Shown: positions 3,559 to 55,130 of the stretch, one piece after another
How positions within the stretch are numbered: the first letter of the stretch is position 1
How the letters are laid out: each line of letters starts with the position of its first letter
Assembly: GCA_012517065.1 (NCBI GenBank)
Contig: JAAYVR010000026.1
Location: 2,390-66,389 of the forward strand
Direction of reading: 5' to 3'
Source: Verrucomicrobiota bacterium
GTDB taxonomy: Bacteria > Verrucomicrobiota > Verrucomicrobiia > Limisphaerales > J093
DNA length: 64,000 bases
Translations under genes and position numbers: made by a program
The notes under the pieces: generated by a model
What the model was told of the DNA's origin: nothing
The model's database searches: none
The model's input: only the letters and a program-made list of their open reading frames with translations

Positions 3559-3997
3559 GGCTATTGTATTCGTCAGCGATTGCGCGGAGGACCGGGGCTC
3601 GTTCCTCATTCAAGCGCGCGTAGTTACTGAGAGTGTACATTTCAAACTCGCTGACCTCATTGGGGCGCACGCGTGCTATACAACGACCCGTTCGAATAAC
3701 CTCTTTCCTCATCACGGTGCTGGCGCGACGCAGGTCAAGCAGTTCAACCTCGAGACCGAGCAACGATGAGAGTTCCTGGCTCGCAAGATAGACCTCCCAG
3801 ACATCGCATAGCTGCGACGACAGGAAAGCCACGTCAAGATCGCTTTGCGGCCCGGATGTGCCCTGGGCGCGCGACCCAAAAACATAGACTGCAGCGGGGT
3901 CGAATCGAGCGAGAGTGCGCAAGAGAACCCCGAGCTGATCGTTGTTCAGACGCAACAACTCAAGCGTGTCATTCGTTTCGTCGAGTTTGGCTGGCAT
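3551..3997 (-). CDS. mntA: nucleotidyltransferase antitoxin MntA
   Basis: 148 aa. NTase signature YVFGSRAQGTSGPQSDLDVAFL. Sits directly upstream of and overlaps the DUF86 gene. Confidence 0.85.
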   Translation of the reverse strand: MPAKLDETNDTLELLRLNNDQLGVLLRTLARFDPAAVYVFGSRAQGTSGPQSDLDVAFLSSQLCDVWEVYLASQELSSLLGLEVELLDLRRASTVMRKEVIRTGRCIARVRPNEVSEFEMYTLSNYARLNEERAPVLRAIADEYNSHA

Positions 3998-5452: not shown

Positions 5453-6289
5453 TTACTGTTGGCCGAACTGGTATGACAAGTACAATGCCACCCCGCGCTG
5501 GCGCGCGTATTCAGGCACGTCACGGCTCGAAACCATGTGCGCAACCAGTATGGGAAATACCTTGCCGCAGACCGCCTTCAGAGGTTCCACCCTGTTGCGA
5601 ATGAAACGGTCCACCTCGTTCTTGGACAATTGCGCCTTGGCTTCCCCGATTATCCAAACCGGCTCACTCCCTCGGGTCCCACGCCCCAAAATGTTGACCT
5701 CCAAATCCCGACCCCTTGCATCCGCGAGATAGTCGCGGCGAAGAGGTTCCGTAAGCTTGACTTGGTGGTCGCGTTCCAAGAGCACCGGCAAAGCCCGATA
5801 TGCCTCGTTTTCCAGAGTGTACCCCACAGTGATTGCCAGGCCGCCGAGTTGCTTGTTCGTGTCGTCCAGCCTTTCTGCGAGCTTTGCCAATGCTGATTCG
5901 GTTCGTTGCTGCGCCGCGGCAAGTTCCCCCAAACGAATCTCTGTACTTTTCTGCGCTTCGCTGAGTTCGTTTAACGACCGAGTAAGTTCCTCGACACGGG
6001 TCTCTGTGCGTTTCTGCGCTTCGGCGAGTTCTCCAAGCCGGATCTCGGTCTGCTTCTGTGCCGCACTGAGTTCTTCGACGCGAGCTTCGGTCCGCTTTTG
6101 TGCCTCGGCCAATTCCTTTTGCGACACTGCGAGCTCGCTAACAACACGTTGCAGGGCCTCGAAATCGGACCTCTTGACCGTGTCCTGAAGGTCCTCATAG
6201 ATCAGGCCCAGCACGGATGCGAGTTTCTGAGCAGGTCTCGGGTCCATGACCTCGCTCAGTTCCTCGTATATGCGCAAGGTGTTGATCAC
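5453..6289 (-). CDS. coiled-coil protein with C-terminal PD-(D/E)xK-like domain (DUF3782-like, function unknown)
   Basis: 278 aa. Repeated ELAEAQKRTExRVEEL units, then RDLEVNILG...IIGEAKAQL. The first codon at 6289 is GTG; an ATG alternative is at 6247. Confidence 0.7.
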   Translation of the reverse strand: MINTLRIYEELSEVMDPRPAQKLASVLGLIYEDLQDTVKRSDFEALQRVVSELAVSQKELAEAQKRTEARVEELSAAQKQTEIRLGELAEAQKRTETRVEELTRSLNELSEAQKSTEIRLGELAAAQQRTESALAKLAERLDDTNKQLGGLAITVGYTLENEAYRALPVLLERDHQVKLTEPLRRDYLADARGRDLEVNILGRGTRGSEPVWIIGEAKAQLSKNEVDRFIRNRVEPLKAVCGKVFPILVAHMVSSRDVPEYARQRGVALYLSYQFGQQ

Positions 6290-6994: not shown

Positions 6995-7531
6995 CTAAAC
7001 CTTCTCAGCGTCCTTGTACACGATCTCAATTCCGGTCCCGACAAGTGATTCCGGGTGATAGCGAGGAATTGGTAACCTGCGCTGTTGTAATGTCACCGGA
7101 CACATCTTCTTCTCAACAAGACCCAGCGCAAGAGCAACCCCGTAAAGGATCGCTTCCGGCCGGGGCGGACATCCCGGGATGTAGTAATTAACGGGGATCA
7201 CCTTTTCAACAGGCCCGAGCACGTTGTATGAGTCGTGCCAAATCCCGCCGCCACACGCACACGAACCGATTGCAAACACCAGCTTCGGTTCCGGCATGGC
7301 TTCGTATGCGCGACGCAGTGCCGCTGCGGTGGGCCGCATTGCAGGACCCTGGCAAAGCATAACATCCGCGTGCCGCGGTGAACCCACCAGCTTTATGCCG
7401 AAGCGCTCGGCATCGTAGTAGGGCGTCAGAACGTTGAGGACTTCAATGTCACAACCGTTGCAACCGCCGCTGTTGGCATGGTAAACCCACAGCGATTTGC
7501 GAAACATCTTCCTGCAAAGTTGCTTGATCAT
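6995..7531 (-). CDS. [NiFe]-hydrogenase small subunit, NuoB/HycG-like (group 4 type)
   Basis: Motifs GGCNGCDIE, GSCACGGGIW and PGCPPRPEAI. ATG at 7531 gives an N-terminus parallel to HycG; the track ORF starts at a TTG at 7558. Confidence 0.9.
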   Translation of the reverse strand: MIKQLCRKMFRKSLWVYHANSGGCNGCDIEVLNVLTPYYDAERFGIKLVGSPRHADVMLCQGPAMRPTAAALRRAYEAMPEPKLVFAIGSCACGGGIWHDSYNVLGPVEKVIPVNYYIPGCPPRPEAILYGVALALGLVEKKMCPVTLQQRRLPIPRYHPESLVGTGIEIVYKDAEKV

Positions 7532-7558
7532 TTGTACACGACGGCAAACAACCGCCAA

Positions 7559-8083
7559 TCAGTCCAGATCAATCCTGATATCAGCCACTGTTGACTCGGT
7601 ATCAAGATAACCCTTCGAGTGGAATACCCATCTTTCACTGGCTACATCGTCGAATCTGTAACCCTTCAGTTTCAACCGTTCGAGCGGTGATGGTTCCGGG
7701 AAACACCTGCCACAACGCTGGCAAGTGCTCATGAACAGCTCGAGACGCTGGCTCAAATCGGCGATTGCGTTTGTCGCCGTTTCAAAGTCGTGGCTCATTG
7801 TGATGGCTTTTTCGGGGCAAACATCCGCACACCGGCCGCAGAATGTGCACCGCCTACCAAGGTACTGGATAATCCGCAGTTCCTGGCAAATGTCGTGCAC
7901 CAAAATCTCCCGAGCAGGACAGTTGTTCGCGCAACCCGCGCATCCGATGCATTTGGCCGCATCGAAAATCGGTCGGCCCCGAAACCGCGGCGGCACCGGC
8001 CGCGGCTCTGCCGGATAAGGCAGCGTCACGCGGCCAGCTTTGAGGCAAAGAACTGTTTCCCTGATTTTGCTCAGCAATGACAT
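7559..8083 (-). CDS. 2x[4Fe-4S] ferredoxin-like hydrogenase subunit (HycF/NuoI-like)
   Basis: 174 aa. CIGCAGCANNCP and CTFCGRCADVCP cluster motifs. Located within the hydrogenase operon. Confidence 0.9.
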   Translation of the reverse strand: MSLLSKIRETVLCLKAGRVTLPYPAEPRPVPPRFRGRPIFDAAKCIGCAGCANNCPAREILVHDICQELRIIQYLGRRCTFCGRCADVCPEKAITMSHDFETATNAIADLSQRLELFMSTCQRCGRCFPEPSPLERLKLKGYRFDDVASERWVFHSKGYLDTESTVADIRIDLD

Positions 8084-8185
8084 GACTTTGACTAGATTAT
8101 CCGCGGTGCAAACCCCGCAGTTCGTCCGGCTACAGCCGTGAAACCAACACGCGCCGCGGCTTCTGTTGGATTCGCCATGTTCGAC

Positions 8186-9109
8186 TCAGTACCCATACGT
8201 TGCAAGGATCAGCGCAAACACGGCAATCACCAGCATCCCGCCAAAGTACCGCACCGCCTGGTCCACCCGGTACCTCGCGTGTGTTGCCGCTACCAATGTC
8301 ACAAGCAGCACAAGAACCAACACCTTGCACCAGAACAGCACCCACCCAAGGGGAAACGGCAAGCCCGATCCCCACGGCACAAACAACGCCACAAACAGTG
8401 CCGCGTAAACCACCAGCTTTGCCATCCGCGCCCACTTGAACAACGCAAGTTTCGGACCCGAATACTCCGACAGCGGCCCTTCCATTATCTCAGTTTCAGC
8501 TTCCGGTATGTCGAACGGCACACGCTGTACCAGAGCTTGAAACGATGCCGCTGACACCACCAGCATCAGCAACCCGGACACTCCAAACCGCCCTTCATAG
8601 ACTGCACCCCCAAGGACCGCGTCCAGACGCAACGAGTTTGCGTGAACCGCTCCGACAATCATGGCCACCGCAAACAACGGTTCCAACGTGATCATCAGCA
8701 TCATCTCGCGGCTCATCCCCAAAAGCGAGTAGGTCGAACCCGCGGCAAGCCCCGCCATCAGCGTGCAAAGCCCACCCAGCATCAGCAAATAAATCAAGAC
8801 CAACGCATCGCCTGCCCCACCCAGCGGCGCATTAAATCCCATCGGAACAAAACAAACTGCGGCAAGCACCACGCCCATCGACAGCCACGCAGCGAATCGC
8901 TGTGCCCACGGCGCTTCCCCGGACTCGATGTCTTCCTTCCCGAGCAGCTTGAAAAGGTCGTAATAAGGCTGCAACAGCGGGGGGCCTTTTCTCGATTGCA
9001 CACGCGCCGTCACTTTCCTGAGAATGCCTTCGAACAAAGGCGCCAGCACCAGCACAAGTGCTGCGTTGCAGATGCATCCAATTATTGCCCAAAACCAACT
9101 CATGACCAT
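8186..9109 (-). CDS. integral membrane hydrogenase subunit (NuoH/HycD-like)
   Basis: 307 aa, polytopic. N-terminal block LAPLFEGILRKVTARVQSRKGPPLLQPYYDLFKLLGKE is typical of the NuoH/HycD family. Confidence 0.9.
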   Translation of the reverse strand: MVMSWFWAIIGCICNAALVLVLAPLFEGILRKVTARVQSRKGPPLLQPYYDLFKLLGKEDIESGEAPWAQRFAAWLSMGVVLAAVCFVPMGFNAPLGGAGDALVLIYLLMLGGLCTLMAGLAAGSTYSLLGMSREMMLMITLEPLFAVAMIVGAVHANSLRLDAVLGGAVYEGRFGVSGLLMLVVSAASFQALVQRVPFDIPEAETEIMEGPLSEYSGPKLALFKWARMAKLVVYAALFVALFVPWGSGLPFPLGWVLFWCKVLVLVLLVTLVAATHARYRVDQAVRYFGGMLVIAVFALILATYGY

Positions 9110-9116
9110 CAGTACC

Positions 9117-10814
9117 CTACGAATCCTTGATGTGGCGTCCGCTTTGCGCGCGTTTTGCCATTTCCCTGAGGTCGCGCGGCGTCCATACCTTGACCGCCCC
9201 AGACCTTACGTCCACAGCTTCGATCCGGTCCGTGCACGAAAAGCATGGATCGATGCTCCCCAAAGCAATTGTCATGTCCGCCAGTTGTGCGTCCCGAATC
9301 ATCGAAGGCACACCCTGCAGATTCTGGTAGGTCGGCGCTCTGACCCGCCACCGTCGAGGCCGGTTGTTCTCGCCCGTGATCACGAAATGATGCGATTCAC
9401 CACGTGGGGCTTCGACCGAAGACAGGCCGAACCGCCCGGCCGGGAGATCTTCCTTGATCGGGGTCTGGATCGGACCTGGCTCAAGTCGCGCGAGGCATTG
9501 GCGGATAATGCTTATTGATTCGAATACTTCGTCGGTTCGCACCACCAACCTGCCCCACACATCGGCGCTCTGGGCGGTTATCACTCGAAAATCGACCCTG
9601 TCATACGCCGCGTATGGATGATCGCGCCGGCAATCAATGTCAACGCCCGCTGCGCGCGCAACAGGTCCGATCAACCCCATTTCTTTCACAACACTCGCGT
9701 CAGCAACGCCAACGCCACACGTTCTTCTTTGGATGTTCTTGTCGTTCTTGACCGCCCTGGCCACGTTGTGCCATTCGCTTTCGAGCTTGTCCAAAACTGT
9801 TTTGAGCTCATCACTCAGCTCAGAGGTAATATCCCATCTTACCCCGCCAATCACGCACAAGCCGTAGGTCTTGCGATTGCCACTGATCTTCTCCGCAATC
9901 CACATCACCGGTTCCCGAACTCTGAAGGCCTGCATGAACAGCGTGTCAAACCCAACAATGTGACACGCCAAACCAACCCACAAAAGATGGCTGTGCAGCC
10001 GTTCCAGCTCCAGCATTATGGTGCGAATGTACTCCGCACGGGGCGGCGGACGCAAAGCAACGGCTTCCTCGACCGATTGCGCGTATGCAACGTTGTGCAC
10101 GCAGCCGCATATCCCGCAAATCCGCTCCGCCATGATCGGAATGTCATTGTACCCCAGCACGCTTTCAGCCAGTTTCTCGATCCCCCTGTGCACCATGAAA
10201 CCCCGATACTCGCACCCGCGAACGGTTTCCCCTTCAACGTACAGACGAAAATGTGCCGGCTCATCCAACGTCGGATGAAAAGGCCCAAACGGCACCACAG
10301 TGCAACCTTCCGGAGGATCATCGAAATCGTAGCCAGCCCCGCTCTCGTCACAATCCGGCGCCTCATCCCACTCGACATCCTTCCGCAAAGGATGCAGGCC
10401 TTCCGGCCAACCATCCGGCAAAACTAACCGCTTCGGATACGGATGCCCCACCGCCTCGATCCCAACAAGGTCACGCATTTCGCGTTCGGCCCAATTCGCC
10501 GCCGGCACAACATCGGAAATGCTCTCGATCCGCGGCGAGTCAGCCGGCAGCAGACACATCACGCTCACCAGCAACCGGTCCCGGTCAAACGCAAAGTTGT
10601 GCGCAACCATGAAACAACCCGACCACGGCCGATCGTCGGCCCCAATCGTTATCACGTACCGGGCGTCCAGCTCACGAAACAATGCCCGACACACCTCCTT
10701 CACCGATCTCGGCTCGACAAACACGTAAAGTCGGCGATCGCTCGTCAGGTCGGCGCGAATAATCGCCGCCCCAAACCGCTGCCGCAAAAAACCAAGTTTC
10801 TCTCTCGCCGCCAT
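9117..10814 (-). CDS. [NiFe]-hydrogenase large subunit fused to a NuoC-like domain (HycE-like, group 4)
   Basis: 565 aa. N-terminal NuoC-like part, then NiFe ligand motifs RICGICGCVH and DPCFSCTDR. Confidence 0.95.
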   Translation of the reverse strand: MAAREKLGFLRQRFGAAIIRADLTSDRRLYVFVEPRSVKEVCRALFRELDARYVITIGADDRPWSGCFMVAHNFAFDRDRLLVSVMCLLPADSPRIESISDVVPAANWAEREMRDLVGIEAVGHPYPKRLVLPDGWPEGLHPLRKDVEWDEAPDCDESGAGYDFDDPPEGCTVVPFGPFHPTLDEPAHFRLYVEGETVRGCEYRGFMVHRGIEKLAESVLGYNDIPIMAERICGICGCVHNVAYAQSVEEAVALRPPPRAEYIRTIMLELERLHSHLLWVGLACHIVGFDTLFMQAFRVREPVMWIAEKISGNRKTYGLCVIGGVRWDITSELSDELKTVLDKLESEWHNVARAVKNDKNIQRRTCGVGVADASVVKEMGLIGPVARAAGVDIDCRRDHPYAAYDRVDFRVITAQSADVWGRLVVRTDEVFESISIIRQCLARLEPGPIQTPIKEDLPAGRFGLSSVEAPRGESHHFVITGENNRPRRWRVRAPTYQNLQGVPSMIRDAQLADMTIALGSIDPCFSCTDRIEAVDVRSGAVKVWTPRDLREMAKRAQSGRHIKDS

Positions 10815-10838
10815 GTTAACAGTTTGTCACCTCGATTC

Positions 10839-12788
10839 TCACCCGCTTTTCCGGCCGTTTCCTCTTGATGCCACAGCCGATTCTTCAACCATGCTCCCGC
10901 GCCACCCGCCACCAACCCACCTGAACAGCCTCTTTATCTCCCCGTAATACCCGTGCGCTCGATAACGATTGTGTTCGCCTTCCCGCGCATAACCGCACAA
11001 CCACGGTTCAGCGATGCGCCGACTCGCGCCCCCCGCCCTGCTCACCCACAACGCAACCAGCAGCCCTCCCACCAACACCAAAGCAACACCCGCAGGAGCA
11101 AACACCGCCGCGCCATTGTCCAGTGTGACTCCCCACCATGCACCGCCGGAGGCTGTTGTTCCTGCTGCCAATGCTTCGCCCCAGCCCTGATGACTCTGCC
11201 GCAACGCCGTCCCAATCAGGACCACACCCAACGCGGGCCAAATTCCCAGCAATACGCAGGCCGCCGCAAGAAACACCTGCGGCACCTGCATCAATCCCCC
11301 GACCTCAAGCCGACCGCGGCTTGCAAACCGTTCTTTCACCAACTTGCTGCTGCGCGACAGGAAGCTCGCACCAAAGAACTTCATGAACGAAGCCAATGTA
11401 AGCGCGCTTGTAAGAATTGCTATCAGACCGCACACAGCAAGGTACTTGACGGCGCTGCTGCCGGTAATGCACGCCACATAAATGTGCCACTTGCTGGCAA
11501 ACCCGTTGAACAACGGCACCCCCGCAATCGAGAACGACGCAATGCACGCAGTCGCCGCCGTCAGCGGCATCAGGCGCACCAATCCTCCCATCCTATTCAG
11601 GTCTTGTGTGCCAGTGGCCCACAACAACGAGCCCGCGTTCAAAAACAGCAGCGCCTTGAACAGCCCGTGATTAAGCACGTGAAACAACGCGCCGCACAAA
11701 CCCACCGCCGCAAGCGTCGCGCCAATGCTACCCCCTTTGGCCAGCAGCACCATGCACGCCCCTGCCCCAAGCATGATGTAACCGATCTGCCCTATGCTGT
11801 GGAACGCCAGCAACCGCTTCGATTGTTCCTGTCGCAGCGCCTGCATCGTGCCGGTGAAAAGCGTGATCGTCCCCAGCGCTACAACCAATGCGCCCCACGA
11901 TGCCATCGGGAATTCTGCGCGCACCGCCGGCGACGGCAGCCACAGAAAATACCGCATCAGACCGTATGCGCCTGTCTTGATCATCACGCCCGAGAGCATC
12001 GCGCTCACTGGCGAAGGCGCCGCCGGGTGCGCGTCGGGCAGCCAAAACTGCCCAAACGGCCACATCCCCATCTTTATGCCAAACCCGATCAGGAACAAAC
12101 CAAACGCAATCGCCGATGCAGTCGGCCGCGTCTGCAACATGGCAGGCAAATTGCTCCTGACACTCTCGAAATCGTATTTCAGCCCGCCTGCGCCGGTGGC
12201 AGCCGCGCCGGTAAGCGCAAGGAGTTCCGCGCCAACCATCGTTGCCACACACGCAATCTGCATCATCAGAAGGTACTTGTTCGCTGCGCGGACGTTCTGG
12301 CGGATGCGGTGCTCGTATCTGATGAGCGCATAGCCCGGCATGGTCATCATTTGCCAGAAAATGAAGAAAAACCACATCATGTCCGTCGTGGTCAGCAACC
12401 CGTACATCGCCGCCAGAAAAACAAGAAAATAGGGATAGTACCTGCCAACACCGTACCCGCTGTAGTGGTCCATGTACCGGATGCCGTAAAGCGCTGCCGG
12501 CACCGCAACCAGCACCGACAACACCAAAAACACCGCGCTCAAACCGTCCACATGAAGCCGCAACGCAAATCCCAGTGCCGGCATCTGAAGGAACTGGGCC
12601 GGTTCTTCAGACGCTCCGCCCGCAAAAACCCGGGCCACAGCCGCCAGCACCAGAGCACCAGAAAGCGCCGTCACGAGAAACGCAGCCCAACCCGCCAGCC
12701 TCCTGCTGGAAGCAACAGCAGCGGTCAGCACCGCGCCGCCAAGGCACAGAAAAATCGCTCCTACGACTGCTTGTTCAGGCGTCAACAC
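10839..12788 (-). CDS. antiporter-like membrane subunit (NuoL/M/N, HycC/HyfB-like)
   Basis: 649 aa, about 14-16 TM. Conserved proton-pump blocks (WLPDAHPAAPSPVSAMLSGVMIKTGAYG, HSIGQIGYI). GTG start overlaps the stop of the protease gene. Confidence 0.9.
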   Translation of the reverse strand: MLTPEQAVVGAIFLCLGGAVLTAAVASSRRLAGWAAFLVTALSGALVLAAVARVFAGGASEEPAQFLQMPALGFALRLHVDGLSAVFLVLSVLVAVPAALYGIRYMDHYSGYGVGRYYPYFLVFLAAMYGLLTTTDMMWFFFIFWQMMTMPGYALIRYEHRIRQNVRAANKYLLMMQIACVATMVGAELLALTGAAATGAGGLKYDFESVRSNLPAMLQTRPTASAIAFGLFLIGFGIKMGMWPFGQFWLPDAHPAAPSPVSAMLSGVMIKTGAYGLMRYFLWLPSPAVRAEFPMASWGALVVALGTITLFTGTMQALRQEQSKRLLAFHSIGQIGYIMLGAGACMVLLAKGGSIGATLAAVGLCGALFHVLNHGLFKALLFLNAGSLLWATGTQDLNRMGGLVRLMPLTAATACIASFSIAGVPLFNGFASKWHIYVACITGSSAVKYLAVCGLIAILTSALTLASFMKFFGASFLSRSSKLVKERFASRGRLEVGGLMQVPQVFLAAACVLLGIWPALGVVLIGTALRQSHQGWGEALAAGTTASGGAWWGVTLDNGAAVFAPAGVALVLVGGLLVALWVSRAGGASRRIAEPWLCGYAREGEHNRYRAHGYYGEIKRLFRWVGGGWRGSMVEESAVASRGNGRKSG

Positions 12789-13330
12789 CTGGCCACCTCC
12801 AGCATCTCTCCAATCAACGACTCCAAAACGTTCAAGCTCTCTCTCACCGGCGCCGATAGACCGGTTCCGCGTTTCACTGACTCAGGTTTCACGCCCAAAA
12901 GCCACACTCGGGCCCCGCCAACTTCTTCGATATATTTCCCCAACAAACCTAGCCCGATTCTGTGAGTCGAAACCTCCAAACGCAATTCTTCCAACTCGTT
13001 GCAGTCCATCAGCACAATCGTCCCTGGGTCGCCTTCACACGCAACCGCATCCACAAACAACACCCGATCAAACCCGCCTTCAACCAGCCGACGCGAATGC
13101 CGCTCAGGTTCAACGCCCGCAACAATAAACTCGCAGTTCGCCCGCCCTCCAAACCCTCCAAATCGAGCGTCTTCGCCATCGTCGCCCAGAACACCAAGCC
13201 TGTTCATGAGCCCGTTCACCAGACACACTCCGAACCCGTCGTCGCCGCTCTCGGTGTTGCCGATGCCGACCACGGCCACGCGCCCTGGAGCGCCAAGGAT
13301 GCTGTGCAAGTGTTGTCTGATGTCGTTCAT
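12782..13330 (-). CDS. hydrogenase maturation endopeptidase (HycI/HyaD family)
   Basis: 182 aa. RVAVVGIGNTESGDDGFG and FVDAVACEGDPGTIVLMD motifs. Its ATG shares one base with the upstream stop (TGATG). Confidence 0.85.
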   Translation of the reverse strand: MNDIRQHLHSILGAPGRVAVVGIGNTESGDDGFGVCLVNGLMNRLGVLGDDGEDARFGGFGGRANCEFIVAGVEPERHSRRLVEGGFDRVLFVDAVACEGDPGTIVLMDCNELEELRLEVSTHRIGLGLLGKYIEEVGGARVWLLGVKPESVKRGTGLSAPVRESLNVLESLIGEMLEVARC

Positions 13331-14235
13331 CAGATGTCTTCGCCGAGTTTCTTGATTTGCTCGTAAGTGAAAACCGGCCCGTCAACGCAAACGTACGCAA
13401 CCCCGATGCAGCAATGGCCGCACTTGCCAACCCCGCATTTCATGTAGCGTTCAAGCGTCGAAACAATGTCGCGTTCCGCAAAACCGAGTTGCAGCAGGTC
13501 CTTGATCGCAAAACGAAACATCACGGGCGGTCCGCACACAAACGCCGTCGAGTTCGCCACCGCCACGTTGATCCCCGGTTTCTTCAGCAGGCTGCCCACC
13601 ACGCCAACATTCCCTTTCCACCCGTCCGCCGGGCGATCAACCGTGACATGGCACTCGAGCCCCGCAGATTCTTCCCACGCTTTCAAATCCCGCACGTACA
13701 TCAAATCTGACGGCGTCCTCGCCCCGTAAAAAACCTGAAGCCGACCGTAACGCTCCCGATGAGCCATCGCATATACAATGCAGGACCTCAACGGGATCAA
13801 ACCTATCCCGCCCGCCACAAACACAAGGTTCCGACCGTAGTATTGTTCCATCGGAAACCCGTTGCCATACGGACCACGCACGCCGAAAATCTCGCCCGGC
13901 TTCAGAGCATGAAGCGCAGCCGTGCAACTGCCCACATTCCGAACCGTGAAAAACAGTTCGTCCTCAGTCGGGCTCGGCGGCAACGAAGCCGGAAACTCCC
14001 CCACGCCAAACAATGAGACCTGCGCAAACTGACCCGGCCTGAACGCACGGAATTTCGCTTGCTCAGCCGCATCAACAAAATGCCAGTAAAAGGTTTTTAC
14101 TTCGGCAATTTCGTCCTGGACCCCGTCGAGCACGGCCAGTTTTGGCATATAAACGTTCTCAACCGGGCCGGGAATCGCGCCATCGAGCACGCCACGACCT
14201 TCAGCCGCTACGGTGATTTTGCCATTAACGCCCAT
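13330..14235 (-). CDS. FAD/NAD(P)-binding oxidoreductase with C-terminal [2Fe-2S] (sulfhydrogenase gamma / AsrB / PyrK-like)
   Basis: FNR-like fold blocks (RPGQFAQVSLFGVGEFP, LVFVAGGIGLIPL) and CGVGKCGHCCIG cluster motif. ATG at 14235; the track ORF begins at a TTG at 14265. Confidence 0.85.
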   Translation of the reverse strand: MGVNGKITVAAEGRGVLDGAIPGPVENVYMPKLAVLDGVQDEIAEVKTFYWHFVDAAEQAKFRAFRPGQFAQVSLFGVGEFPASLPPSPTEDELFFTVRNVGSCTAALHALKPGEIFGVRGPYGNGFPMEQYYGRNLVFVAGGIGLIPLRSCIVYAMAHRERYGRLQVFYGARTPSDLMYVRDLKAWEESAGLECHVTVDRPADGWKGNVGVVGSLLKKPGINVAVANSTAFVCGPPVMFRFAIKDLLQLGFAERDIVSTLERYMKCGVGKCGHCCIGVAYVCVDGPVFTYEQIKKLGEDI

Positions 14236-15325
14236 CAGCCGGAACAGGTTCGATCTTTTCTTCAAGCGCTGCAGCGCGCCTGATCATTTCTACAACGCTT
14301 GGCATGCCAACATCGCCGTGGCACACGGCGGCGCACCGGCCGCATCCCACGCATGCCATGCTCAATTCACGTTGAATGAAATAATGCGCCAGTTTCCTGA
14401 AAAACCGGCGGTTGCGCCTGTCGTGCACGCTCTTTCGCGGATTGTGCCCGCCTGCCATCCTCGTAAACCCGCCAAGCGCACACGAATCCCAAATCCGCAC
14501 ACGCTCGATCTCGTCGCGCCCTGTTGGCCTGTCCGACACAGTGAAACACGTGCAAGCCGGACAAACATAGGTGCATCCGCCGCACTCCAAACAACGGTTG
14601 CCAATTTCCTCCCATGTCCTCTCAGGCACGGACCCTTGGGACACATATCGGACCGTTGCACTGAACCAACAGGTGGTTGTCTTGAATCTCTTTCGCACTT
14701 CGCTGAGGATTTGCCGCCGGCGCTCGACATGTTCCTGTGCAGCTCTTGTGAAGATTGGTTCTTCGAACAGAGCTTCCCCCGCAGACGACCCTGCAACCGC
14801 AAGCAGCTCGCCTGCCCCAAGGTCCATCAGTTGCAGGTCGAAATGGTCCCTCGCCGCCGGCCCGGTATCAGTGCATACACAGAAACAGGCGTCGCTGATG
14901 TCCAACTCCGCATTCGTGCAGACAACGTTCACCAGCAACAGTTCCCGGCGCCGCCTCGCGTAGTACGTGTCCGGAAATTCACGGCCGAGATAAAACCGGT
15001 CAAGGTGGTATATCCCCGCCACATCGCATGAACGAATCCCAAATATCGCGCGCTTGGGCGCCTCATAGGTCGCCTGAATGTCATACGCGCCGTTGGCGCG
15101 TTTCACCCGCAGCAACCGCTCGATCGGCGGCAGCACAAACCGCTTCGGAGGATAATACGGATTCGGCACATGCAACCGCACACGGCCGATGTTCTCATCC
15201 GTCACCGTGTCATAGTAGGTGTCGCGCCCTTTGTTGCAGAAAGGCGCAACGACTTCGTACCCGCGCCGGCGAATCGCGTTCACCAGCATCGCAAGGTCTT
15301 CGCTGCGCATCAAACGCGCTTTCAT
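14225..15325 (-). CDS. 4Fe-4S dicluster protein (sulfhydrogenase beta / AsrA-like)
   Basis: 366 aa. CLECGGCTYVCPACTC and CVGCGRCAAVCH motifs. ATGA overlap with the upstream Mo-pterin gene. Confidence 0.85.
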   Translation of the reverse strand: MKARLMRSEDLAMLVNAIRRRGYEVVAPFCNKGRDTYYDTVTDENIGRVRLHVPNPYYPPKRFVLPPIERLLRVKRANGAYDIQATYEAPKRAIFGIRSCDVAGIYHLDRFYLGREFPDTYYARRRRELLLVNVVCTNAELDISDACFCVCTDTGPAARDHFDLQLMDLGAGELLAVAGSSAGEALFEEPIFTRAAQEHVERRRQILSEVRKRFKTTTCWFSATVRYVSQGSVPERTWEEIGNRCLECGGCTYVCPACTCFTVSDRPTGRDEIERVRIWDSCALGGFTRMAGGHNPRKSVHDRRNRRFFRKLAHYFIQRELSMACVGCGRCAAVCHGDVGMPSVVEMIRRAAALEEKIEPVPADGR

Positions 15326-17349
15326 TCTTTCACCTTTTCGATGCGCACTGGAATAAGTTGCTCGCCCGTGCCAGCACCGCGCATCTGCCGCTCGACTTCG
15401 CGCACAAAATACGGAACAAAAACCGTCCCACGACGCACTTCCTTGGTGACGCGCGCAACTGAAACCGCCTCGCCCGTGGAAGAACAGAGGCGAATCTTCG
15501 CCCCGTCTCTTACGCCGAGCATCGCCGCGTCTTCGGGATTGATTTCGACAAACCCATTCGGATAGTCCAGCAAAAGTATCCGATACTCCCGTTTCAGGGT
15601 CTCACTGTGGCGAATGAGCACATTCTGATGCCAGTAATAAAGCGAGTGCCCAAGTACCAACGTGAACGGGTATTCCTTTGACATTGCAGCGCCGCCAGAA
15701 GCTTCACGCGGCACGGGAACAAACTTGAAACGACGTGCCGGCCCGTCTTCCCCAAACAAAAACCGCGTGCCCAACGGCCGGTCTTTGGTGCATGGCCATT
15801 GCCGACCGTAATCCCGTGCCAGATTCTCGTACGACGCGCCACTGTAAAACGGAACCGCAGCGCCAATTTCTTCCATCACATCCGAACTGTCATTGTACCG
15901 CCAGTCCGCTCCCATCAATTGCGCGACGCGCGCAATCTGCTGCCACGCAGGCGTCAAACTCGGCGCCGATTCCAACACCTTTTCCGCAAGCTGAATCCGG
16001 CGCTCGGTGTTCGTGAAAGATACGCGCTCCTCACCAAAAGCAGTTGTCGGCAAAACCACATGCGCACGACGCGCTGTCTCTGTCAGAAAAATGTGCTGCA
16101 CAACAACCAACTCCATCCCGTCGAGCACCTTCGCCGCATCCCCAAACAACGCGGTGTTCACAGGGTCATACCGGCAGAGCCATAAAGCTCTAAGGTCTGA
16201 AGTGGAATTCCTCCCGAACAGTTCTCTCGCGCCCCGGCCGGGAACCGACGGAAGCCGCGCGCCCCAAAGCCGCTCGAAACGCGCACGCGCCTCATCGCAA
16301 ATGACAGGCTGGTACCCGGGGAACCGGTCCGGCAACATCCCCATGTCGCAAACACCCTGAAGATTGTTTTGCTCGGCAAGGGCGTAGATGCCCGCTCCTT
16401 CCTTTCCGACGTTTCCACACAGCAGCGCAAGGTTCACAATCGCGCGAATCGTTTCCTTGCTGCGCGCTTCCATCCCTGTCGAATAGAGCAGGGCCGCTCT
16501 TTTGGCGCGTGCGTAAATTAGGGCCGCTTCCTCGATCTGAGCAGGATTAACACCGCATTCCTCCGCTGCCGACCAAAGATCGTATTCCTGCAATCGCGCG
16601 AGAAACGCGCCGTAATCCTTGCAGTGCGCGCGGATGAAACCCAGATCGCGCAATCCCCGATCGTAAATCACCTTCGCCATCGCACCGTAAAGGACTGCCT
16701 CTGTTCCGGGATGCACTTGAAGGAACAGATCGGCGCTTTCGGCCACCCGATGTCGCCGGGCATCAATCACGATCAGTTTTGCCCCATTTAGTTTGGCCCG
16801 AATGACAACGCCCCCAACAGTGGGCAATTGCAGACCAAGGTCCACACCGTCCACCACAATCACATCACTCAGATCCAGCTCGCCAATCGAGTTGGTCGTG
16901 GCTGGCACTCCAATCATTTCGTCCAAAACCTGAATGCTGTTGTTGCAGTAGGCGCCTGTCCCGTGATCGACATTGTTCGTTCCCACAACCCCGCGCGCGA
17001 GTTTCTGCAGCAAATAGCTCTCCTCGTTCGAGCATCGTGGTGAATTGAAGAATGCAAGTGCATCTGGACCGTGCCGGTCTCGTATGCTTTTCAGCCGGTC
17101 TGCAACATAACCCAATGCCTCGTCCCACCCGACCTCGACAAGCTCCCTACCGCGCCGCATGAGCGGCATTTTCAATCGATCGGGTGAACTGGCCACCTCG
17201 TGCACGTGCCAGCCCCGAACGCAAATCCTTCCACGGTTCGCCGGATGCGACATGCTCGGATAAACGCCGGTGATCCGGTTTCCCTCGGTTTCGAGGTAAA
17301 TACCGCATCCGACACCGCAAAAAGTGCACGTGGTCAGTCGTTGGGCCAT
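15322..17349 (-). CDS. FdhF-like molybdopterin (bis-PGD) oxidoreductase subunit with non-canonical active-site residues
   Basis: 675 aa. N-terminal 4Fe-4S motif CTFCGVGCG, and strong block similarity to formate dehydrogenase H (GTNNVD, QNNLQGVCDMGMLPDRFPGYQ). However it has Tyr-Cys where FDH has (Sec/Cys)-His, and Ala where FDH has the catalytic Arg. No in-frame TGA. Confidence 0.85.
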   Translation of the reverse strand: MAQRLTTCTFCGVGCGIYLETEGNRITGVYPSMSHPANRGRICVRGWHVHEVASSPDRLKMPLMRRGRELVEVGWDEALGYVADRLKSIRDRHGPDALAFFNSPRCSNEESYLLQKLARGVVGTNNVDHGTGAYCNNSIQVLDEMIGVPATTNSIGELDLSDVIVVDGVDLGLQLPTVGGVVIRAKLNGAKLIVIDARRHRVAESADLFLQVHPGTEAVLYGAMAKVIYDRGLRDLGFIRAHCKDYGAFLARLQEYDLWSAAEECGVNPAQIEEAALIYARAKRAALLYSTGMEARSKETIRAIVNLALLCGNVGKEGAGIYALAEQNNLQGVCDMGMLPDRFPGYQPVICDEARARFERLWGARLPSVPGRGARELFGRNSTSDLRALWLCRYDPVNTALFGDAAKVLDGMELVVVQHIFLTETARRAHVVLPTTAFGEERVSFTNTERRIQLAEKVLESAPSLTPAWQQIARVAQLMGADWRYNDSSDVMEEIGAAVPFYSGASYENLARDYGRQWPCTKDRPLGTRFLFGEDGPARRFKFVPVPREASGGAAMSKEYPFTLVLGHSLYYWHQNVLIRHSETLKREYRILLLDYPNGFVEINPEDAAMLGVRDGAKIRLCSSTGEAVSVARVTKEVRRGTVFVPYFVREVERQMRGAGTGEQLIPVRIEKVKE

Positions 17350-17585: not shown

Positions 17586-17953
17586 CTAGCCCGCATATTT
17601 CCCAGCCCGGGGTAGCCGGAACCAAAGTCGCCCAACGGGCAACGCCCCCGGCTCTCGCACCCCCCGGACCTTCAGCCGCGCCGGGCTGGGAAATATGCCC
17701 TGCGACTCCGTCGCCGGGAAGAGCGCGCTGATCAAGCCCCCACTGCACGCGGCGCCGCCGCGGTTGCAGTGGGCGTTGGTAGGCGCGAAGCGCTTGGAGT
17801 GCGGCAGCTTGCTGCCGCTTTGTTTCTTATGCGCGAACAACGTGTCTGGCACTCTATTTACATCTCCACTGATGCATTCGGCGCGCCGGGCACGGCACTC
17901 CCTACCATTGATGAAATCTTGCGCAAGGCAGGGCGGGCGCTCCGCGCACACCG
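17586..17953 (+). repeat. composite repeat, modules A-B-C-K
   Basis: A is a long hairpin (cccgcatatttcccagcccgg ... ccgggctgggaaatatgccc). B contains gcgaagcgcttggagtgcggcagcttgctgccgctttg. C is the 25-nt joint. K is gatgaaatcttgcgcaaggcagggcgggcgctccgc. Each module recurs elsewhere in the window. Confidence 0.9.
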
Positions 17954-18192
17954 CAAACAAAGTGCCTGTCACCCTATTGCCGAGGCTGGCGCCGCAGCCA
18001 GCCACGAAGCTGCAGTTGGTTTGCGAGCTGGCTGATGGACAGCCGAAGGGGTCCGATGAGCAACAAAGTGCCTGTCACCCTATTGCCGAGGCTGGCGCTG
18101 CGGTCGGGCATGAAGCTGTAGTTGGTTTGCGAGCTGGCAGATGGACCGCCGCGGGAGCCTGATGAGCAACAAAGTGCCTGTCACCCTATTGC
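17954..18192 (+). repeat. tandem repeat, about 106-nt unit x 2.3
   Basis: Units start at 17954, 18061 and 18167, each beginning ca(a)acaaagtgcctgtcaccctattgc. The 80-nt remainders of units 1 and 2 are homologous to each other. Confidence 0.9.
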
Positions 18193-18440
18193 ATCATGAA
18201 AAACCCAGTGAGAGGGGCGTGCTCGAAAGGGCACAAAACTCTCAAACGGAACTCTGTGGGTAACCAATCCCACCCGGCAAAGGCTAACCACCAGCCGGAA
18301 GCGAGTTTTGCGTAGTTGTCAGCAATGGCAGCACGAAGCCGCCGACAGCCAGTGTCAAAGCCGTGTGATTGAGCCTCGAAATAAAGGTGTTGCTGGAGCC
18401 TTCGTTGTTAGAGTTGCGGGGGCGGCATCGAAGTCCCCAG

Positions 18441-18505
18441 CCCGGAAATCTCACCGCCTGACCAGACCAACAGACCGAGAGCTTCATTCCGGTGAGATTT
18501 CCGGG
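18441..18505. repeat. hairpin element, family E
   Basis: Perfect 16-nt arms cccggaaatctcaccg / cggtgagatttccggg with a 33-nt loop. Confidence 0.9.
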
Positions 18506-18738
18506 CTAGAAAGCCTGCGAACGGGGCCGCCCGAAGCCGGGGAGTAGGGAAGAGGCAGACACTGTTACGGAGCCGCCTTGAGGAAACACGATGGACACAC
18601 TGAGGTCCGGAGTCGTGTGAACGGAAAAACGGCGGATGGCAACTGCGGCGCGAAGCTGTAACTGGAAGAAGCGTGTGCGAGAAAACAGTTCGCACGGGTC
18701 TGTGGGGGAGCCGATGGAAAACCACCGGCTCTACCCGG

Positions 18739-19010
18739 ATCCGACTCACCCCCGAAGATCGTGCTGTTGTGAGCGCCTTACTTGCTGCCAAAGAAAGAGA
18801 TACAGAGAAACTGAGCAAACTCGCGGCGTGAAAATCTTCGCAAAGATGAGTGATTTTTCAATATAGCAATGCAGCCTGGCGCAGCCGGAGCCAAAGTTGC
18901 CCGATGGGCACTGATCCGGCGCCTGCGCACGCTGACCAGAGCCCTCTGCCACGCCGGGCTGCCAAATATCCGCTGCGACTCCGTCGCAGGCAAAACCACT
19001 CTGATCAAGC
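18739..19010 (+). repeat. composite repeat, 3' part of module D joined to module A
   Basis: Matches 26277-26415 and 34868-35000 (D, including the conserved 30-codon frame and AT-rich tail), then the A body gccggagccaaagttgcc ... ctgcgactccgtcgc. Confidence 0.85.
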
Positions 19011-19116
19011 CACGCACCGGACGTGTCACTGCCAGAGTATGTCCCAACCACATCTAACTCTTCCGCCCAAAGGCGGGACTCGAACAGCCCGGAGCGCGAA
19101 AACGTTGCTGTGATAG

Positions 19117-19413
19117 TCAGGGCTTTCAGCCCTTGGATTGTGGAAGGTGATGTCCAGATGGCCCTTGTCGTGGGGCTTCACCCCACGCTGGTATGGACCG
19201 CGCCCTTGGCGCTTCGATGACCGACCAAGACAACCGCGTTGTGCATGGCAGCGTAGTTGATTGTTTCAGCCATGAACGCCAATCACTGTGTTCGAGACCG
19301 TTGGTGTTCGTGGACCAATGACTCGAGGGCCGAAGGCCCCGCCCCATACCAGCCTGGGCCAGCGGCCCAGGTCAAAGGCGCCAGATCAGTATCAATAAGG
19401 GCTGAAAGCCCGT
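19117..19413. repeat. inverted pair of family J elements (gggctttcagccc type) flanking about 100 bp
   Basis: The left copy (19117-19218) and the reverse complement of 19325-19413 align: gggctttcagccctt ... ctggtatgg ... ccttnggc. Confidence 0.75.
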
Positions 19414-19429
19414 ATTATGCACGTTTACC

Positions 19430-19618
19430 GACGAATCACTGTTCGAGAACGTTCGACGTTCAACGTACAACGCTCAACGTACAACGTTCAGAGGTGTTAC
19501 TGCTCGACGAATGTTCGTTTCAAGGCCGCCTAAAGGCGGGACTCTAACGGCCGCGGGCACGGCAACGCCAAATGCCTGGAAATAACCCGCCGCCGTTAGA
19601 GTTCCGCGTTTAAGCGGA
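19430..19618 (+). repeat. composite repeat, modules G + F
   Basis: G carries tcaacgtacaacgctcaacgtacaacgttcagaggtgttactgctcgacgaatg. F is a nested stem-loop (ccgcctaaaggcgg, gactctaacgg ... ccgttagagtt, ccgcgtttaagcgg). Confidence 0.85.
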
Positions 19619-19639
19619 AACGAGAAGACTGTCTGTCAC

Positions 19640-19890
19640 AGCTCCGGCGCGCCAGGGACGGCGCGCCCTACCGTGGATGAAATCTTGCGCAAGGCATGGC
19701 GGGCGCTCCGCACACACAACAAACAACGTGTCTGTCCCCATATGGTCTCATTGGATCGCGCCGCTGATCCCGATGGTTTTTCACGCGCTGCCGCACATGC
19801 AGTGCGCGTTGGTAAACGCGAAGCGCTTGGAGTGCGGCAGCTTGCTGCCGCTTTGTTTTTGTGCGCAAACAACGTGCCTGCGCCCGTTGC
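19640..19890 (+). repeat. composite repeat, modules K-C-B-C'
   Basis: Same module sequences as at 17736-17980, in a different order. Abuts the 3' end of the EamA-like gene. Confidence 0.85.
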
Positions 19891-19931
19891 TGAGCGCTGC
19901 GCTTTCAAGCGTCGCACGTTGAAAGCTCCTT

Positions 19932-20363
19932 TCACTTGGCCGGCGTGGACTCCGAGCTGGGCGCGCTGGGTGGAAGCGCACTTTTTTGGTGCTCGGTCCA
20001 TGAAACAACCGCAGCGCCAAGCACGATGAGCAGCACGCCGCACCATCGCATGGCGGAAACCTGTTCGTGCAGAAGAAACCGTGCGGCCAAGGTCGTGAGG
20101 ACGAACCCTAACGACGTGAGGGGCCAGATAAAACTGACGTCGCTGCGCGACATCAGGTACAAAAGCCCGGCAAAAAAGAGCGCCTCGAAAAACACGCCCA
20201 ACAGAAAATTGCCGTTTGTCAGGCCCTGCCTTGCAACCCTCATGATCTCGGCGCCTGAGACTCTCTCGACGTTTCCGATTTGGTGAAGCCCTTTGCTCAA
20301 CAGGACGACGCCCGTGGCTTCGAGCACGAGGGCAACGAGCAATATGACAAGGAGTTTGGCCAT
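19932..20363 (-). CDS. small EamA/SMR-like membrane protein (ArnE/ArnF-like, 4 TM)
   Basis: 143 aa, four hydrophobic helices. Starts 1 nt after the YdjC-like stop. Confidence 0.7.
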   Translation of the reverse strand: MAKLLVILLVALVLEATGVVLLSKGLHQIGNVERVSGAEIMRVARQGLTNGNFLLGVFFEALFFAGLLYLMSRSDVSFIWPLTSLGFVLTTLAARFLLHEQVSAMRWCGVLLIVLGAAVVSWTEHQKSALPPSAPSSESTPAK

Positions 20364-20364
20364 C

Positions 20365-21198
20365 TCAGAGTTCTGAATAACGGATTAATCTGATGTTCAA
20401 CTGCCGCACCAGCTCGCGAACACGGCCGCTCACCAGCGCTTCGAGTTCGGCACGAGACTGATCGAGGGACGGATGCGAGTAAAGCTCGTAGTCGCCCGCC
20501 GACAGCCTTGGCATGAGACGCAAGATGTAGTCTTCATCGACGCGCCCGTTCTGAAGGAGGCCGAACACAGCATCTGTATGTCGGATGCCGGCTTTTCGAA
20601 GGCGTGGCCGTGCCCAGGCAGACAGGCAGGCAAAGATGATCGCATGACTGCTTCGGTAGAAGTACCGGCCGCGCGCGATTTGGTAATTGAGCCAAAAAAA
20701 GTCCCTTGTGAGGCGAATCGGCACCGGGCGCGGCATGGTGATGAAAGGGTACAACAGGGCTGTCACTGTCGGGTGAAGGTGGATGTTAAGGTGGCCGTTT
20801 ACATGATCCAATGGCAGGCCTGTTTCTTTGAAGCGATTGAACTGGGCTGCGATCTCGCCTGCCAACTGGTTGCGCAGTGTTCGGTTGAAAAAGTATCGCA
20901 GCCCTGTGCGCACCGGGTTGTCGCTGAATCTGCCCCGGTTGTCCACAAGGGTGGGTATCTCGTGCGGGGGCAAACAGGAGCGACCGCAGAGAAGCGTCAG
21001 GTGAAGGCCAACGCCCAGACCCGGGTTTGCTTTGGCGATTGCGACTGCTTCGTCGAAAGCGTCGCCTGTGACCATCAGACTGGCAGTTGTCAGAATGCCC
21101 TGCTGGTGCGCCATGGCTATGGCATGGTTTGCGGCCGAAGACTTGCCGAAGTCATCAGCGTTGACCACGAGGCGGATGCGCCGGTCACAGGAAACCAT
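20365..21198 (-). CDS. YdjC/ChbG/HpnK-family carbohydrate deacetylase
   Basis: RLVVNADDFGKSSAANHAIAMAHQQGILTTASLMV and GVGLHLTL motifs. Internal ATG at 21198 is preferred (the longer ORF overlaps the synthase by 110 nt). Confidence 0.85.
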   Translation of the reverse strand: MVSCDRRIRLVVNADDFGKSSAANHAIAMAHQQGILTTASLMVTGDAFDEAVAIAKANPGLGVGLHLTLLCGRSCLPPHEIPTLVDNRGRFSDNPVRTGLRYFFNRTLRNQLAGEIAAQFNRFKETGLPLDHVNGHLNIHLHPTVTALLYPFITMPRPVPIRLTRDFFWLNYQIARGRYFYRSSHAIIFACLSAWARPRLRKAGIRHTDAVFGLLQNGRVDEDYILRLMPRLSAGDYELYSHPSLDQSRAELEALVSGRVRELVRQLNIRLIRYSEL

Positions 21199-55081: not shown

Positions 55082-55130
55082 CCTGTTCCTTGACGGGCGG
55101 GCGCTGATTCCGCGCCGGGCTGTTGCGTTC

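Follow-up and report, generated by a model that had tools for sequence, protein, structure and literature searches.

A formate hydrogenlyase-type hydrogenase operon of Verrucomicrobiota with a sulfhydrogenase-like flavoprotein module and a formate dehydrogenase-like subunit lacking the catalytic triad

The nine-gene operon

With what does a membrane-bound [NiFe]-hydrogenase of the formate hydrogenlyase (FHL) type exchange electrons when its operon encodes both a formate dehydrogenase (FDH)-like protein and a flavoprotein module for NAD(P)H? This question is raised by an operon on the minus strand (positions 6995-17349) of a 64,000-nucleotide stretch of DNA from a Verrucomicrobiota bacterium (contig JAAYVR010000026.1 of assembly GCA_012517065.1), to which, at its full length, we refer as the window. 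Alignments indicate that the FdhF-like subunit encoded by the first gene of the operon keeps the cysteines of a [4Fe-4S] cluster without the catalytic triad of FDHs, a property that an earlier sequence-only reading of this DNA had not reported. Since the residues for formate oxidation are lost and an NAD(P)H flavoprotein module is present, NAD(P)H rather than formate would probably be linked to H2.

The operon comprises nine co-directional open reading frames (ORFs), all of them found at the coordinates that the sequence-only reading had given. Strong matches to Pfam and NCBIfam models were obtained for each ORF and agree with the families that had been assigned to them. In the order of transcription, the genes are:

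15322-17349, minus strand: FdhF-like subunit, 675 amino acids (Molybdop_Fe4S4, Molybdopterin and Molydop_binding domains; TIGR01591)
14225-15325, minus strand: beta, a HydB/ShyB/AsrA-like poly-iron-sulfur protein, 366 amino acids (Fer4_22)
13330-14235, minus strand: gamma, a HydG/ShyC/AsrB/PyrK-like protein, about 286-301 amino acids (NAD_binding_1, DHODB_Fe-S_bind)
12782-13330, minus strand: HycI-type endopeptidase for the C-terminus of the large subunit, 182 amino acids (PF01750, TIGR00072)
10839-12788, minus strand: HyfB/HycC/NuoL-like antiporter-type membrane subunit, 649 amino acids (Proton_antipo_M; PRK06521, hydrogenase 4 subunit B, 386 bits)
9117-10814, minus strand: [NiFe] large subunit, a HycE-type NuoC-NuoD fusion, 565 amino acids (Complex1_30kDa, NiFeSe_Hases, Complex1_49kDa)
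8186-9109, minus strand: HycD/HyfC/NuoH-like membrane subunit, 307 amino acids (NADHdh, PF00146, 212 bits)
7559-8083, minus strand: HycF/HyfH/NuoI-like 2x[4Fe-4S] subunit, 174 amino acids (PRK12387, PRK08222)
6995-7558, minus strand: HycG/HyfI/NuoB-like small subunit, 187 amino acids, or about 178 from an internal ATG (Oxidored_q6, PF01058)

The overlaps between adjacent genes (ATGA, TGATG and GTGTTGA) are exactly as previously described; the gaps of 0-25 nucleotides reported for the operon throughout hold with one exception, a spacing of 102 nucleotides at 8084-8185. The longest ORF for gamma (13330-14265) begins with a TTG codon at position 14265. Judged from the family alignment, an ATG at 14235 or a GTG at 14190 is more likely to be its start, because the conserved N-terminus opens near residue 35 of this longest ORF. 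A scan for promoters and terminators was uninformative, as the counts lay near those expected from shuffled sequences. No convincing sigma-54 promoter was seen upstream of the operon, though a gene for a sigma-54 activator is present at 22416-23843. Pfam scans of the rest of the window revealed neither hyp genes nor genes for the biosynthesis of the molybdenum cofactor (Moco).

The FdhF-like subunit

The best NCBIfam match of the FdhF-like subunit is the Fdh-alpha model TIGR01591, with a score (560.9 bits) that lies under the cutoff of 666.25. We aligned the protein to FdhF of the hydrogen-dependent CO2 reductase (HDCR; PDB chain 7qv7_S, 434 bits) and to FdhH of Escherichia coli. The catalytic segment VD-CCARV-U140-H141-GPS of FdhH, in which U denotes selenocysteine (Sec), corresponds to VD-HGTGA-Y134-C135-NNS in the FdhF-like subunit, PVR333GQNNVQG corresponds to ALAEQNNLQG, and CLK44G to CVRG. 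Across 55 sequences of the family, the four cysteines of the [4Fe-4S] cluster (C8, C11, C15 and C43) are invariant, the position of U140 is always a Tyr (Tyr134 in the window), and that of K44 is always an Arg. The position of H141 varies between Cys (32 sequences), Ser (12), Gly (5), Ala (3) and Thr (2), and that of R333 between Thr (39), Ser (9), Ala (6) and Met (1), followed by an invariant Glu. Sec/Cys140, His141 and Arg333 are essential in characterised FDHs. By these alignments all three are absent from the FdhF-like subunit, which is not a canonical FDH; the phrase "unknown Mo-enzyme substrate", with which the sequence-only reading had hedged its assignment, was justified by the absence of these residues.

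The changes extend well beyond the triad. In 113 closely related canonical FDHs, 196 alignment columns show an invariance of 95% or more; the protein encoded in the window keeps 107 of these, and 89 (45%) are changed. The lost invariants cluster in the motifs GxNxxxxHP (GVDLxxxLP in the window), DPR, MGITQH and GENP (RYDP in the window) and at D478 and R581, and a C-terminal segment of the form N..LT..DP..PE.K is missing altogether. These substitutions suggest that the bis-molybdopterin guanine dinucleotide (bis-MGD) cofactor has probably been lost and that the FdhF-like subunit probably does not function as a molybdoenzyme of a known kind.

The beta and gamma subunits

A single solved homologue was found for beta, the beta subunit of sulfhydrogenase I of Pyrococcus furiosus (9nez_B, 144 bits). 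The gamma subunit of the same enzyme (9nez_C, 194 bits) is the best PDB match of gamma, and it is followed by NqrF, NfnA/PyrK-type proteins (4ylf_A) and other FNR-family reductases. Beta carries two CxxCxxCxxxC motifs and a conserved CFCxC, whose cysteines are kept in 61 sequences. Within 61-66 orthologues of the two proteins, CFCxCxDTGPAA, CLECGGCTYVCPACTCF and CxGCGRCxxVCHG are invariant in beta, as are the nucleotide-binding motif GGIGLIPLRS and the [2Fe-2S] motif CGVGKCGHCC...C in gamma; the stretch GEFPxSLPPSP of gamma aligns with the motif GEVPISICSSP in the flavin adenine dinucleotide (FAD) domain of the sulfhydrogenase gamma subunit. The homology to 9nez and the conserved cysteine, nucleotide-binding and [2Fe-2S] motifs uphold the view that this pair of proteins binds FAD and NAD(P), and none of the FAD, NAD(P) or NiFe motifs proved to be degenerate.

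The scores of beta (161) with the HydB model NF040833 and of gamma (198) stand against equivalog cutoffs of 750 and 650, respectively, and the scores with the NCBIfam models for AsrA and AsrB are also under their cutoffs. Because all of these scores are far too low for equivalogs, beta and gamma are, by their sequences, paralogues of the electron-transfer pair of sulfhydrogenases and anaerobic sulfite reductases (Asr), and not orthologues or members of those systems. In line with this, no gene for the sirohaem subunit AsrC was found in the operon or its flanks, and genes for the alpha and delta subunits of a group 3b hydrogenase are not present; the partner of beta and gamma is a group 4 hydrogenase. 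A tblastn search of plasmids with beta yielded only distant homologues (about 30% identity), annotated as 4Fe-4S protein or AsrA, and no cultured host of the operon.

The hydrogenase core

The large subunit is 39% identical over its full length to each of the E. coli K-12 proteins HycE and HyfG. Its alignment with HycE runs from end to end and includes the NuoC-like N-terminal domain, the NiFe motifs and the C-terminal tail (R|xxxVDVR), which HycI removes. Of the PDB chains, HycE (7z0s_E) gave by far the best score (424 bits); MbhL reached 227 bits, and the NuoD subunits of complex I also scored far lower. The L1 (RICGICGCVH) and L2 (DPCFSCTDR) motifs with the intact NiFe ligands are present as they had been read from the window, and they are invariant in 81 sequences. 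The small subunit is 47% identical to HycG and contains the four cysteines for its [4Fe-4S] cluster; it has no Tat signal region, and its C-terminus is shorter than that of HycG. Identities to the E. coli proteins amount to 37-42% (HycF and HyfH) for the HycF-like subunit, which contains an extra CxxCxxC at residues 121-127, to 34-36% (HycD and HyfC) for the NuoH-like subunit, to 32% (HyfB) for the antiporter-like subunit and to 25% (HycI) for the protease.

Given the HycE alignment, these identities, and a HycE score far above those of MbhL and NuoD, the sequences identify the core as that of a membrane-bound [NiFe]-hydrogenase of the FHL type (HycE/HyfG-type, group 4). An FHL-like core had been proposed before, and the fusion to NuoC, the HycI-cleaved extension and the best PDB match all speak for it. 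In the FHL of E. coli, the poly-ferredoxin HycB connects FdhF to HycF; no match to HycB or HyfA was found among the proteins of the window, and the operon contains no such gene. We did not adopt the label "group 4f (Ehf)", since the papers on group 4f concern other complexes, some of them without NiFe ligands.

With regard to the antiporter-like subunit, one relative of the operon (locus L012) contains a second antiporter-like gene (7849-9984; Proton_antipo_N/M) between the first antiporter gene and that for the large subunit. An extra spacing of about 2 kb, as in this locus, was noted in about seven further loci (L010, L019, L020, L022, L026, L037 and L064).

Distribution and gene neighbourhood

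More than 5000 homologues of the large subunit are present in the protein collection, the top one (97% identity) from a Verrucomicrobiota metagenome-assembled genome (MAG), and when each species was represented by a single genome, at least 536 genomes proved to encode a relative of it. Synteny, conservation and flanks were compared across the best 80 loci, all of which are from MAGs. These represent Verrucomicrobiota, Acidobacteriota (Terriglobales, Acidiferrales and Korobacteraceae), Nitrospirota, Planctomycetaceae, Chthonomonadales, Syntrophobacteraceae, Desulfobacteraceae and Baltobacteraceae. The same nine-gene synteny, for which the sequence-only reading had suggested a search in other genomes, was recovered in 52 of the 80 loci, with every gene present, in the same order and on a single strand. 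Another 27 loci are incomplete yet colinear, nearly all of them on account of contig ends. In one locus (L040) no NuoH, HycF or NuoB hits are found downstream of the large subunit despite a long contig, and another (L072) is the sole one of the 80 with no detectable HycI; these gaps could be assembly frameshifts or real variants. The nine-gene arrangement is very common, not rare.

Across phyla, identities to the window proteins are highest for the small subunit (75-82%), followed by gamma (71-80%), the large subunit (70-77%), beta (65-77%), HycF (63-79%), the FdhF-like subunit (59-70%), the antiporter-like subunit (49-69%) and HycI (28-44%). We clustered the ORFs within 6 kb on either side of the operon across the 80 loci. 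No flanking family recurs in more than eight of them, and no linked hyp, Moco, FocA or regulatory genes were detected. Since no flanking family recurs beyond this number, the nine genes make up a self-contained module, which has probably been acquired by horizontal transfer.

Two features of individual flanks may be recorded here. Genes for an HdrB-like protein (CCG domain, Pfam) and an apparent HdrC-like protein lie directly upstream of the operon in about seven to eight loci, with examples of the HdrB-like gene in Verrucomicrobia MAGs at L008 2517-3437, L012 716-1606 and L020 69-713. An Acidiferrales MAG (L003) carries downstream of the operon (17832-20801) a gene for a 990-amino-acid, NuoG/FdsA-type FDH alpha subunit, whose active site reads RYCQSP, with Cys-Gln in place of Cys-His.

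Relatives of the FdhF-like protein and of its module

When 1.84 billion cluster representatives were searched exhaustively and without profiles, the FdhF-like proteins proved to form a discrete family, with representatives at 61% and 52% identity and then a gap down to 38%. The C/U-H...R triad is missing in about half of the nearest 150 representatives; catalytically dead FDH-like subunits thus are common. The nearest outgroup is a clade to which we refer by its member P0125. Its FdhF-like protein is 41% identical to that of the window and likewise lacks the Cys, His and Arg residues, the corresponding active-site segments being DHGAH[LF][AS]SSAS and L[AIV]EHNN and the K44 motif CLRGW. The large subunit of this clade is 51% identical to that of the window, its NiFe motifs are intact, and two of its loci (L085 and L086) encode FdhF-like, beta, gamma, HycI, two antiporter-like, fused large, NuoH-, HycF- and NuoK-like proteins. 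Therefore, two deep lineages of hydrogenase-linked FdhF-like proteins are both without the catalytic residues.

Among the best matches to P0125, 113 of 120 have a canonical site (CARLCH, PLRGQNNVQ and CVKGW). We examined three loci that encode canonical FdhF together with beta and gamma, from Omnitrophica (L087), Margulisbacteria (L088) and Latescibacterota (L089). All three are free of hydrogenase genes and have an adjoining gene for MobA. A ModA-like binding protein is also encoded in each of them; transporter genes, MoeA, MoaA, MoaC and MOSC are found in both the Margulisbacteria and the Latescibacterota locus, and FocA and FdhD in the former. Upstream of its genes for molybdate transport and Moco biosynthesis, the Margulisbacteria locus contains a Moco riboswitch (7527-7644). 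Its FdhF, beta and gamma proteins are 39, 36 and 48% identical to those of the window, respectively, and from its sequence the module has the appearance of a soluble, NAD(P)-linked FDH that has not been described.

The hydrogenase-linked loci present a different picture. A tblastn search (E<=1e-5) with seven accessory proteins of the canonical loci found no homologue in the 80 hydrogenase-linked loci (1.34 Mb) or in the window, nor did the window or any of the seven hydrogenase-linked loci tested for it yield a Moco riboswitch. The simplest history for these data is that a soluble, NAD(P)-linked FdhF-beta-gamma FDH joined an FHL-type hydrogenase and that its FDH site decayed thereafter.

A possible NAD(P)H-linked hydrogenase and its alternatives

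With the FDH site lost, the NAD(P)H flavoprotein is the only recognisable substrate site encoded in the operon. We see an even chance that the operon specifies an NAD(P)H:H+ oxidoreductase, derived from FHL and perhaps coupled to ions, in which the dead FDH would serve as a NuoG-like iron-sulfur adaptor. In such a complex, NAD(P)H would bind to gamma and donate electrons to, or accept them from, FAD and then the [2Fe-2S] cluster. From there, electrons might pass to the [4Fe-4S] clusters of beta and to the single [4Fe-4S] cluster of the FdhF-like subunit, and HycF and HycG would then relay them to the large subunit with its NiFe site. The FDH relic would thereby replace the missing HycB, much as NuoG does its part in complex I, and this role would explain why a dead subunit of 675 amino acids with invariant cluster cysteines has been retained in every complete locus. 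The reaction NAD(P)H + H+ <-> NAD(P)+ + H2 is, under standard conditions, about 18 kJ/mol uphill in the direction of H2. Through the HycD-like and the HyfB-like subunit in the membrane, it would be coupled to the movement of ions, so that either the proton-motive force would drive a fermentative release of H2, or the oxidation of H2 with reduction of NAD(P)+ would build up a gradient. The fuller proposal, namely a complex-I-like, ion-coupled NAD(P)H:proton oxidoreductase that came about when a soluble FdhF-beta-gamma FDH was grafted onto an FHL core and its FDH subunit then decayed to a cofactor-less NuoG-like adaptor, is tentative and has rather less than an even chance.

Several observations weigh against this proposal. 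The substituted residues Tyr134, Asn136, Asn137, Ser138, Glu326 and Arg45 are strongly conserved, and the FdhF-like subunit is kept at its full length of 675 amino acids and at 59-70% identity in all 52 complete loci; both findings would fit a new catalytic site as well. The sister lineage P0125 retains more of the canonical bis-MGD motifs, so that the loss of the cofactor may not hold for every lineage, and the motifs lost in the window are presumed contacts of the bis-MGD in FdhH. In the antiporter-like subunit, the equivalents of K229, H334, H338, K342 and K399 (NuoL numbering; Lys and His residues of transmembrane segments TM7, TM8 and TM12) are retained. The Glu of TM5 (NuoL E144) is a Gln in 38 of 40 family members, which thus have WQMM for the WEMM of NuoL/M/N, HycC and HyfB. 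Because of this exchange, ion coupling by the membrane arm is uncertain.

The alternative that fares best, which we nevertheless consider unlikely, is that the FdhF-like subunit is a working Mo- or W-bis-pyranopterin guanine dinucleotide (bis-PGD) enzyme with a new active site for an unknown substrate. The metal would have no Cys or Sec ligand and perhaps be coordinated by Tyr134 or a hydroxo group, Glu326, Asn136 and Asn137 would line the pocket, and beta and gamma would be the wire in place of HycB, through which NAD(P)(H) could serve as the second electron partner. In favour of such a site, the substituted residues vary little or not at all between phyla. The similarity to FDHs is also high at the level of the fold (the HDCR match cited above and three detected Pfam domains), the motif FTNTERRIQ and several Gly, Pro and Trp landmarks are kept, most bis-MGD motifs persist in the sister lineage, and a related Mo-pterin protein could likewise not be placed in a known class by others (Matheus Carnevali et al., 2019; PMC6349859). 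However, the residue beside Tyr134 is variable (C/S/G/A/T) and is an Arg in one family representative, and the 45% of canonical invariants that are gone include the presumed bis-MGD contacts, along with the missing C-terminal motif of domain IV. Moreover, no MobA, FdhD, Mod or Moa genes are found near the 80 loci, unlike in the canonical relatives, and the Moco riboswitch is absent from the window and from the seven loci tested. Mo-bisPGD enzymes are not known to have a Tyr ligand.

The assignment of NAD(P)H as the partner of the hydrogenase would also have to be modified if NAD(P)H and a low-potential donor jointly reduced protons in a confurcating or ferredoxin-dependent reaction, with ferredoxin docking on the FdhF-like relic or on beta, or if beta and gamma acted as a sulfur or polysulfide reductase, a role once proposed for sulfhydrogenase. 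Homologues of the pair do occur in sulfhydrogenases and Asr, gamma is related to the NfnA/PyrK-type protein 4ylf_A, and the evolution of H2 from NAD(P)H alone is endergonic. Yet only a single flavin site is predicted, the operon and its conserved flanks contain no gene for a ferredoxin or a further flavoprotein, and no genes of sulfur metabolism are linked to it, which makes this group of explanations quite improbable. Finally, a genuine FHL that converts formate to CO2 and H2, with beta and gamma merely substituting for HycB, would agree with the FHL-like gene order and core, with Fdh-alpha as the best NCBIfam match of the first gene, and with the annotation as FHL of an acidobacterial "fdhF, hyf operon", which may not be this operon (Hausmann et al., PMC6018796), but it is very improbable in view of a triad that is absent from 55 of 55 family members and from the sister lineage and conserved in 113 of the 120 nearest relatives, a TIGR01591 score under the trusted cutoff, and the lack of FocA and FdhD genes nearby.

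Comparison with known systems

The predicted NAD(P)H-linked complex can be set against several known ones. With FHL-1 and FHL-2 of E. coli (Hyc and Hyf; group 4a; 7z0s) it shares the fused large subunit with its NiFe CxxC motifs and HycI-cleaved extension, HycG-, HycF-, HycD- and HycC/HyfB-like subunits (32-47% identity) and an FdhF-like gene in the module. It differs in that the operon has no HycB/HyfA four-cluster ferredoxin, HycH or HycA, adds beta and gamma, lacks the triad in its FdhF-like subunit and encodes a small subunit without the C-terminal extension of HycG. The likeness to the P. furiosus sulfhydrogenase I (group 3b, NADPH-linked) and to AsrA-AsrB consists in the Fer4_22 domain and Cys motifs of beta and in the FAD and NAD(P) domains and C-terminal [2Fe-2S] motif of gamma; the pair of the window, however, joins a membrane-bound group 4 hydrogenase and not the cytosolic alpha and delta subunits or AsrC. 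The stand-alone FdhF-beta-gamma operons of Margulisbacteria, Omnitrophica and Latescibacterota possess the same three-protein input module, whereas the canonical Cys-His...Arg is kept and hydrogenase genes are absent there.

An analogy, and not a homology of the input modules, can be drawn with the N-module of complex I (NuoE/F/G): a flavoprotein with an NAD(P)H site, iron-sulfur wires and an FDH-derived, cofactor-less NuoG likewise feed a module of the NuoB/C/D/H/I/L type. The flavoprotein of the window is of the FNR/PyrK type and would use FAD, whereas NuoF uses flavin mononucleotide, and the acceptor is NiFe and not quinone.

In Saganbacteria RX5A, an "enigmatic" group 4 hydrogenase region has been reported to contain genes for an unclassifiable FdhH-like Mo-pterin protein and for AsrA-, AsrB- and CooF-like proteins; its function was left undetermined, and the accessory proteins were suggested as a possible oxidoreductase module (Matheus Carnevali et al., 2019; PMC6349859). 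Compared by description only, this region resembles that of the window in combining a Mo-pterin protein, AsrA- and AsrB-like proteins and a membrane-bound NiFe hydrogenase, and it differs in being described as of the Mrp-Mbh type with a CooF-like subunit. Apart from that study, the architecture was not described in the literature that we searched on the sulfhydrogenase 9nez, on FHL of Verrucomicrobia or Acidobacteria, and on FDH with beta and gamma; the papers on Staphylothermus, Anaerosomatales and Nitrospira NS4 and that of Nobu et al. are not about this complex. Nor did we find there a characterised member of the family, or a characterised subgroup whose members carry these same accessory genes with a known function. 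The nine-gene operon is a real and widespread variant of the FHL-type membrane-bound hydrogenases, with a related arrangement already flagged in Saganbacteria, and the interpretation offered by the sequence-only reading is supported in every part that could be tested.

Implications

In public databases, the large subunit goes by the names "NADH-quinone oxidoreductase subunit C" or "Ni,Fe-hydrogenase III large subunit". By the residue evidence, it is probably wrong to name such loci "formate dehydrogenase" together with "NADH-quinone oxidoreductase subunit C" or to count them as FHL; if the operon does encode an ion-coupled NAD(P)H:proton oxidoreductase, many calls of "formate hydrogenlyase" or "group 4a" in metagenomes would be misassigned. 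It has long been asked how fermenters and syntrophs can release electrons from NAD(P)H in the form of H2, although this runs against the thermodynamic gradient. The solutions known so far are confurcating [FeFe]-hydrogenases or a very low H2 pressure; a [NiFe]-hydrogenase that is membrane-bound, gradient-coupled and linked to NAD(P)H would add another. If the proposal is correct, the operon would provide a new NAD(P)H-dependent route for the production or consumption of H2 in abundant Acidobacteriota and Verrucomicrobiota of soil and peat. The operon bears on the flow of H2 and carbon in wetlands, as many of the at least 536 genomes are those of Verrucomicrobiota and Acidobacteriota from peat, soil and groundwater. 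The proposed complex would also be an independent replay of a step proposed for the origin of complex I and provide a testable analogue of the transition from FHL to complex I, with an FDH fossil in the role of NuoG.

Other features of the window

On the plus strand, about 1 kb upstream of the operon, a match to group II intron domains D1-D4 (RF02005; 18264-18451) scored 66 bits, above the gathering threshold, and a weak match (19 bits) to domains 5/6 (RF00029) lies at 18666-18740. No reverse-transcriptase or other Pfam hit was obtained in ORFs near these matches; the element could be a group II intron that is degenerate or carries no ORF. A match to the Acido-Lenti-1 small RNA (19169-19213, plus strand) remained below threshold, with 25.8 bits versus a gathering score of 37.

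The other features are on the minus strand. Just downstream of the operon, an ORF of 278 amino acids (5453-6289) encodes tandem coiled-coil repeats of the AEAQKRTE type; it belongs to no Pfam family and is not conserved beside the operon in other loci. A gene for a HepT-like RNase (HepT/MNT-type toxin; 3148-3609) is situated amid sugar-nucleotide and glycosyltransferase genes. Farther away, a gene for a multihaem c-type cytochrome of 921 amino acids (55131-57896), with weak MtrC-, NrfB- and c554-like hits, adjoins a gene of the TauE/SafE sulfite-exporter family (54317-55159), and at 60866-62194 an unusual protein is encoded in which thioredoxin, NosL and MerB (alkylmercury lyase) are fused.

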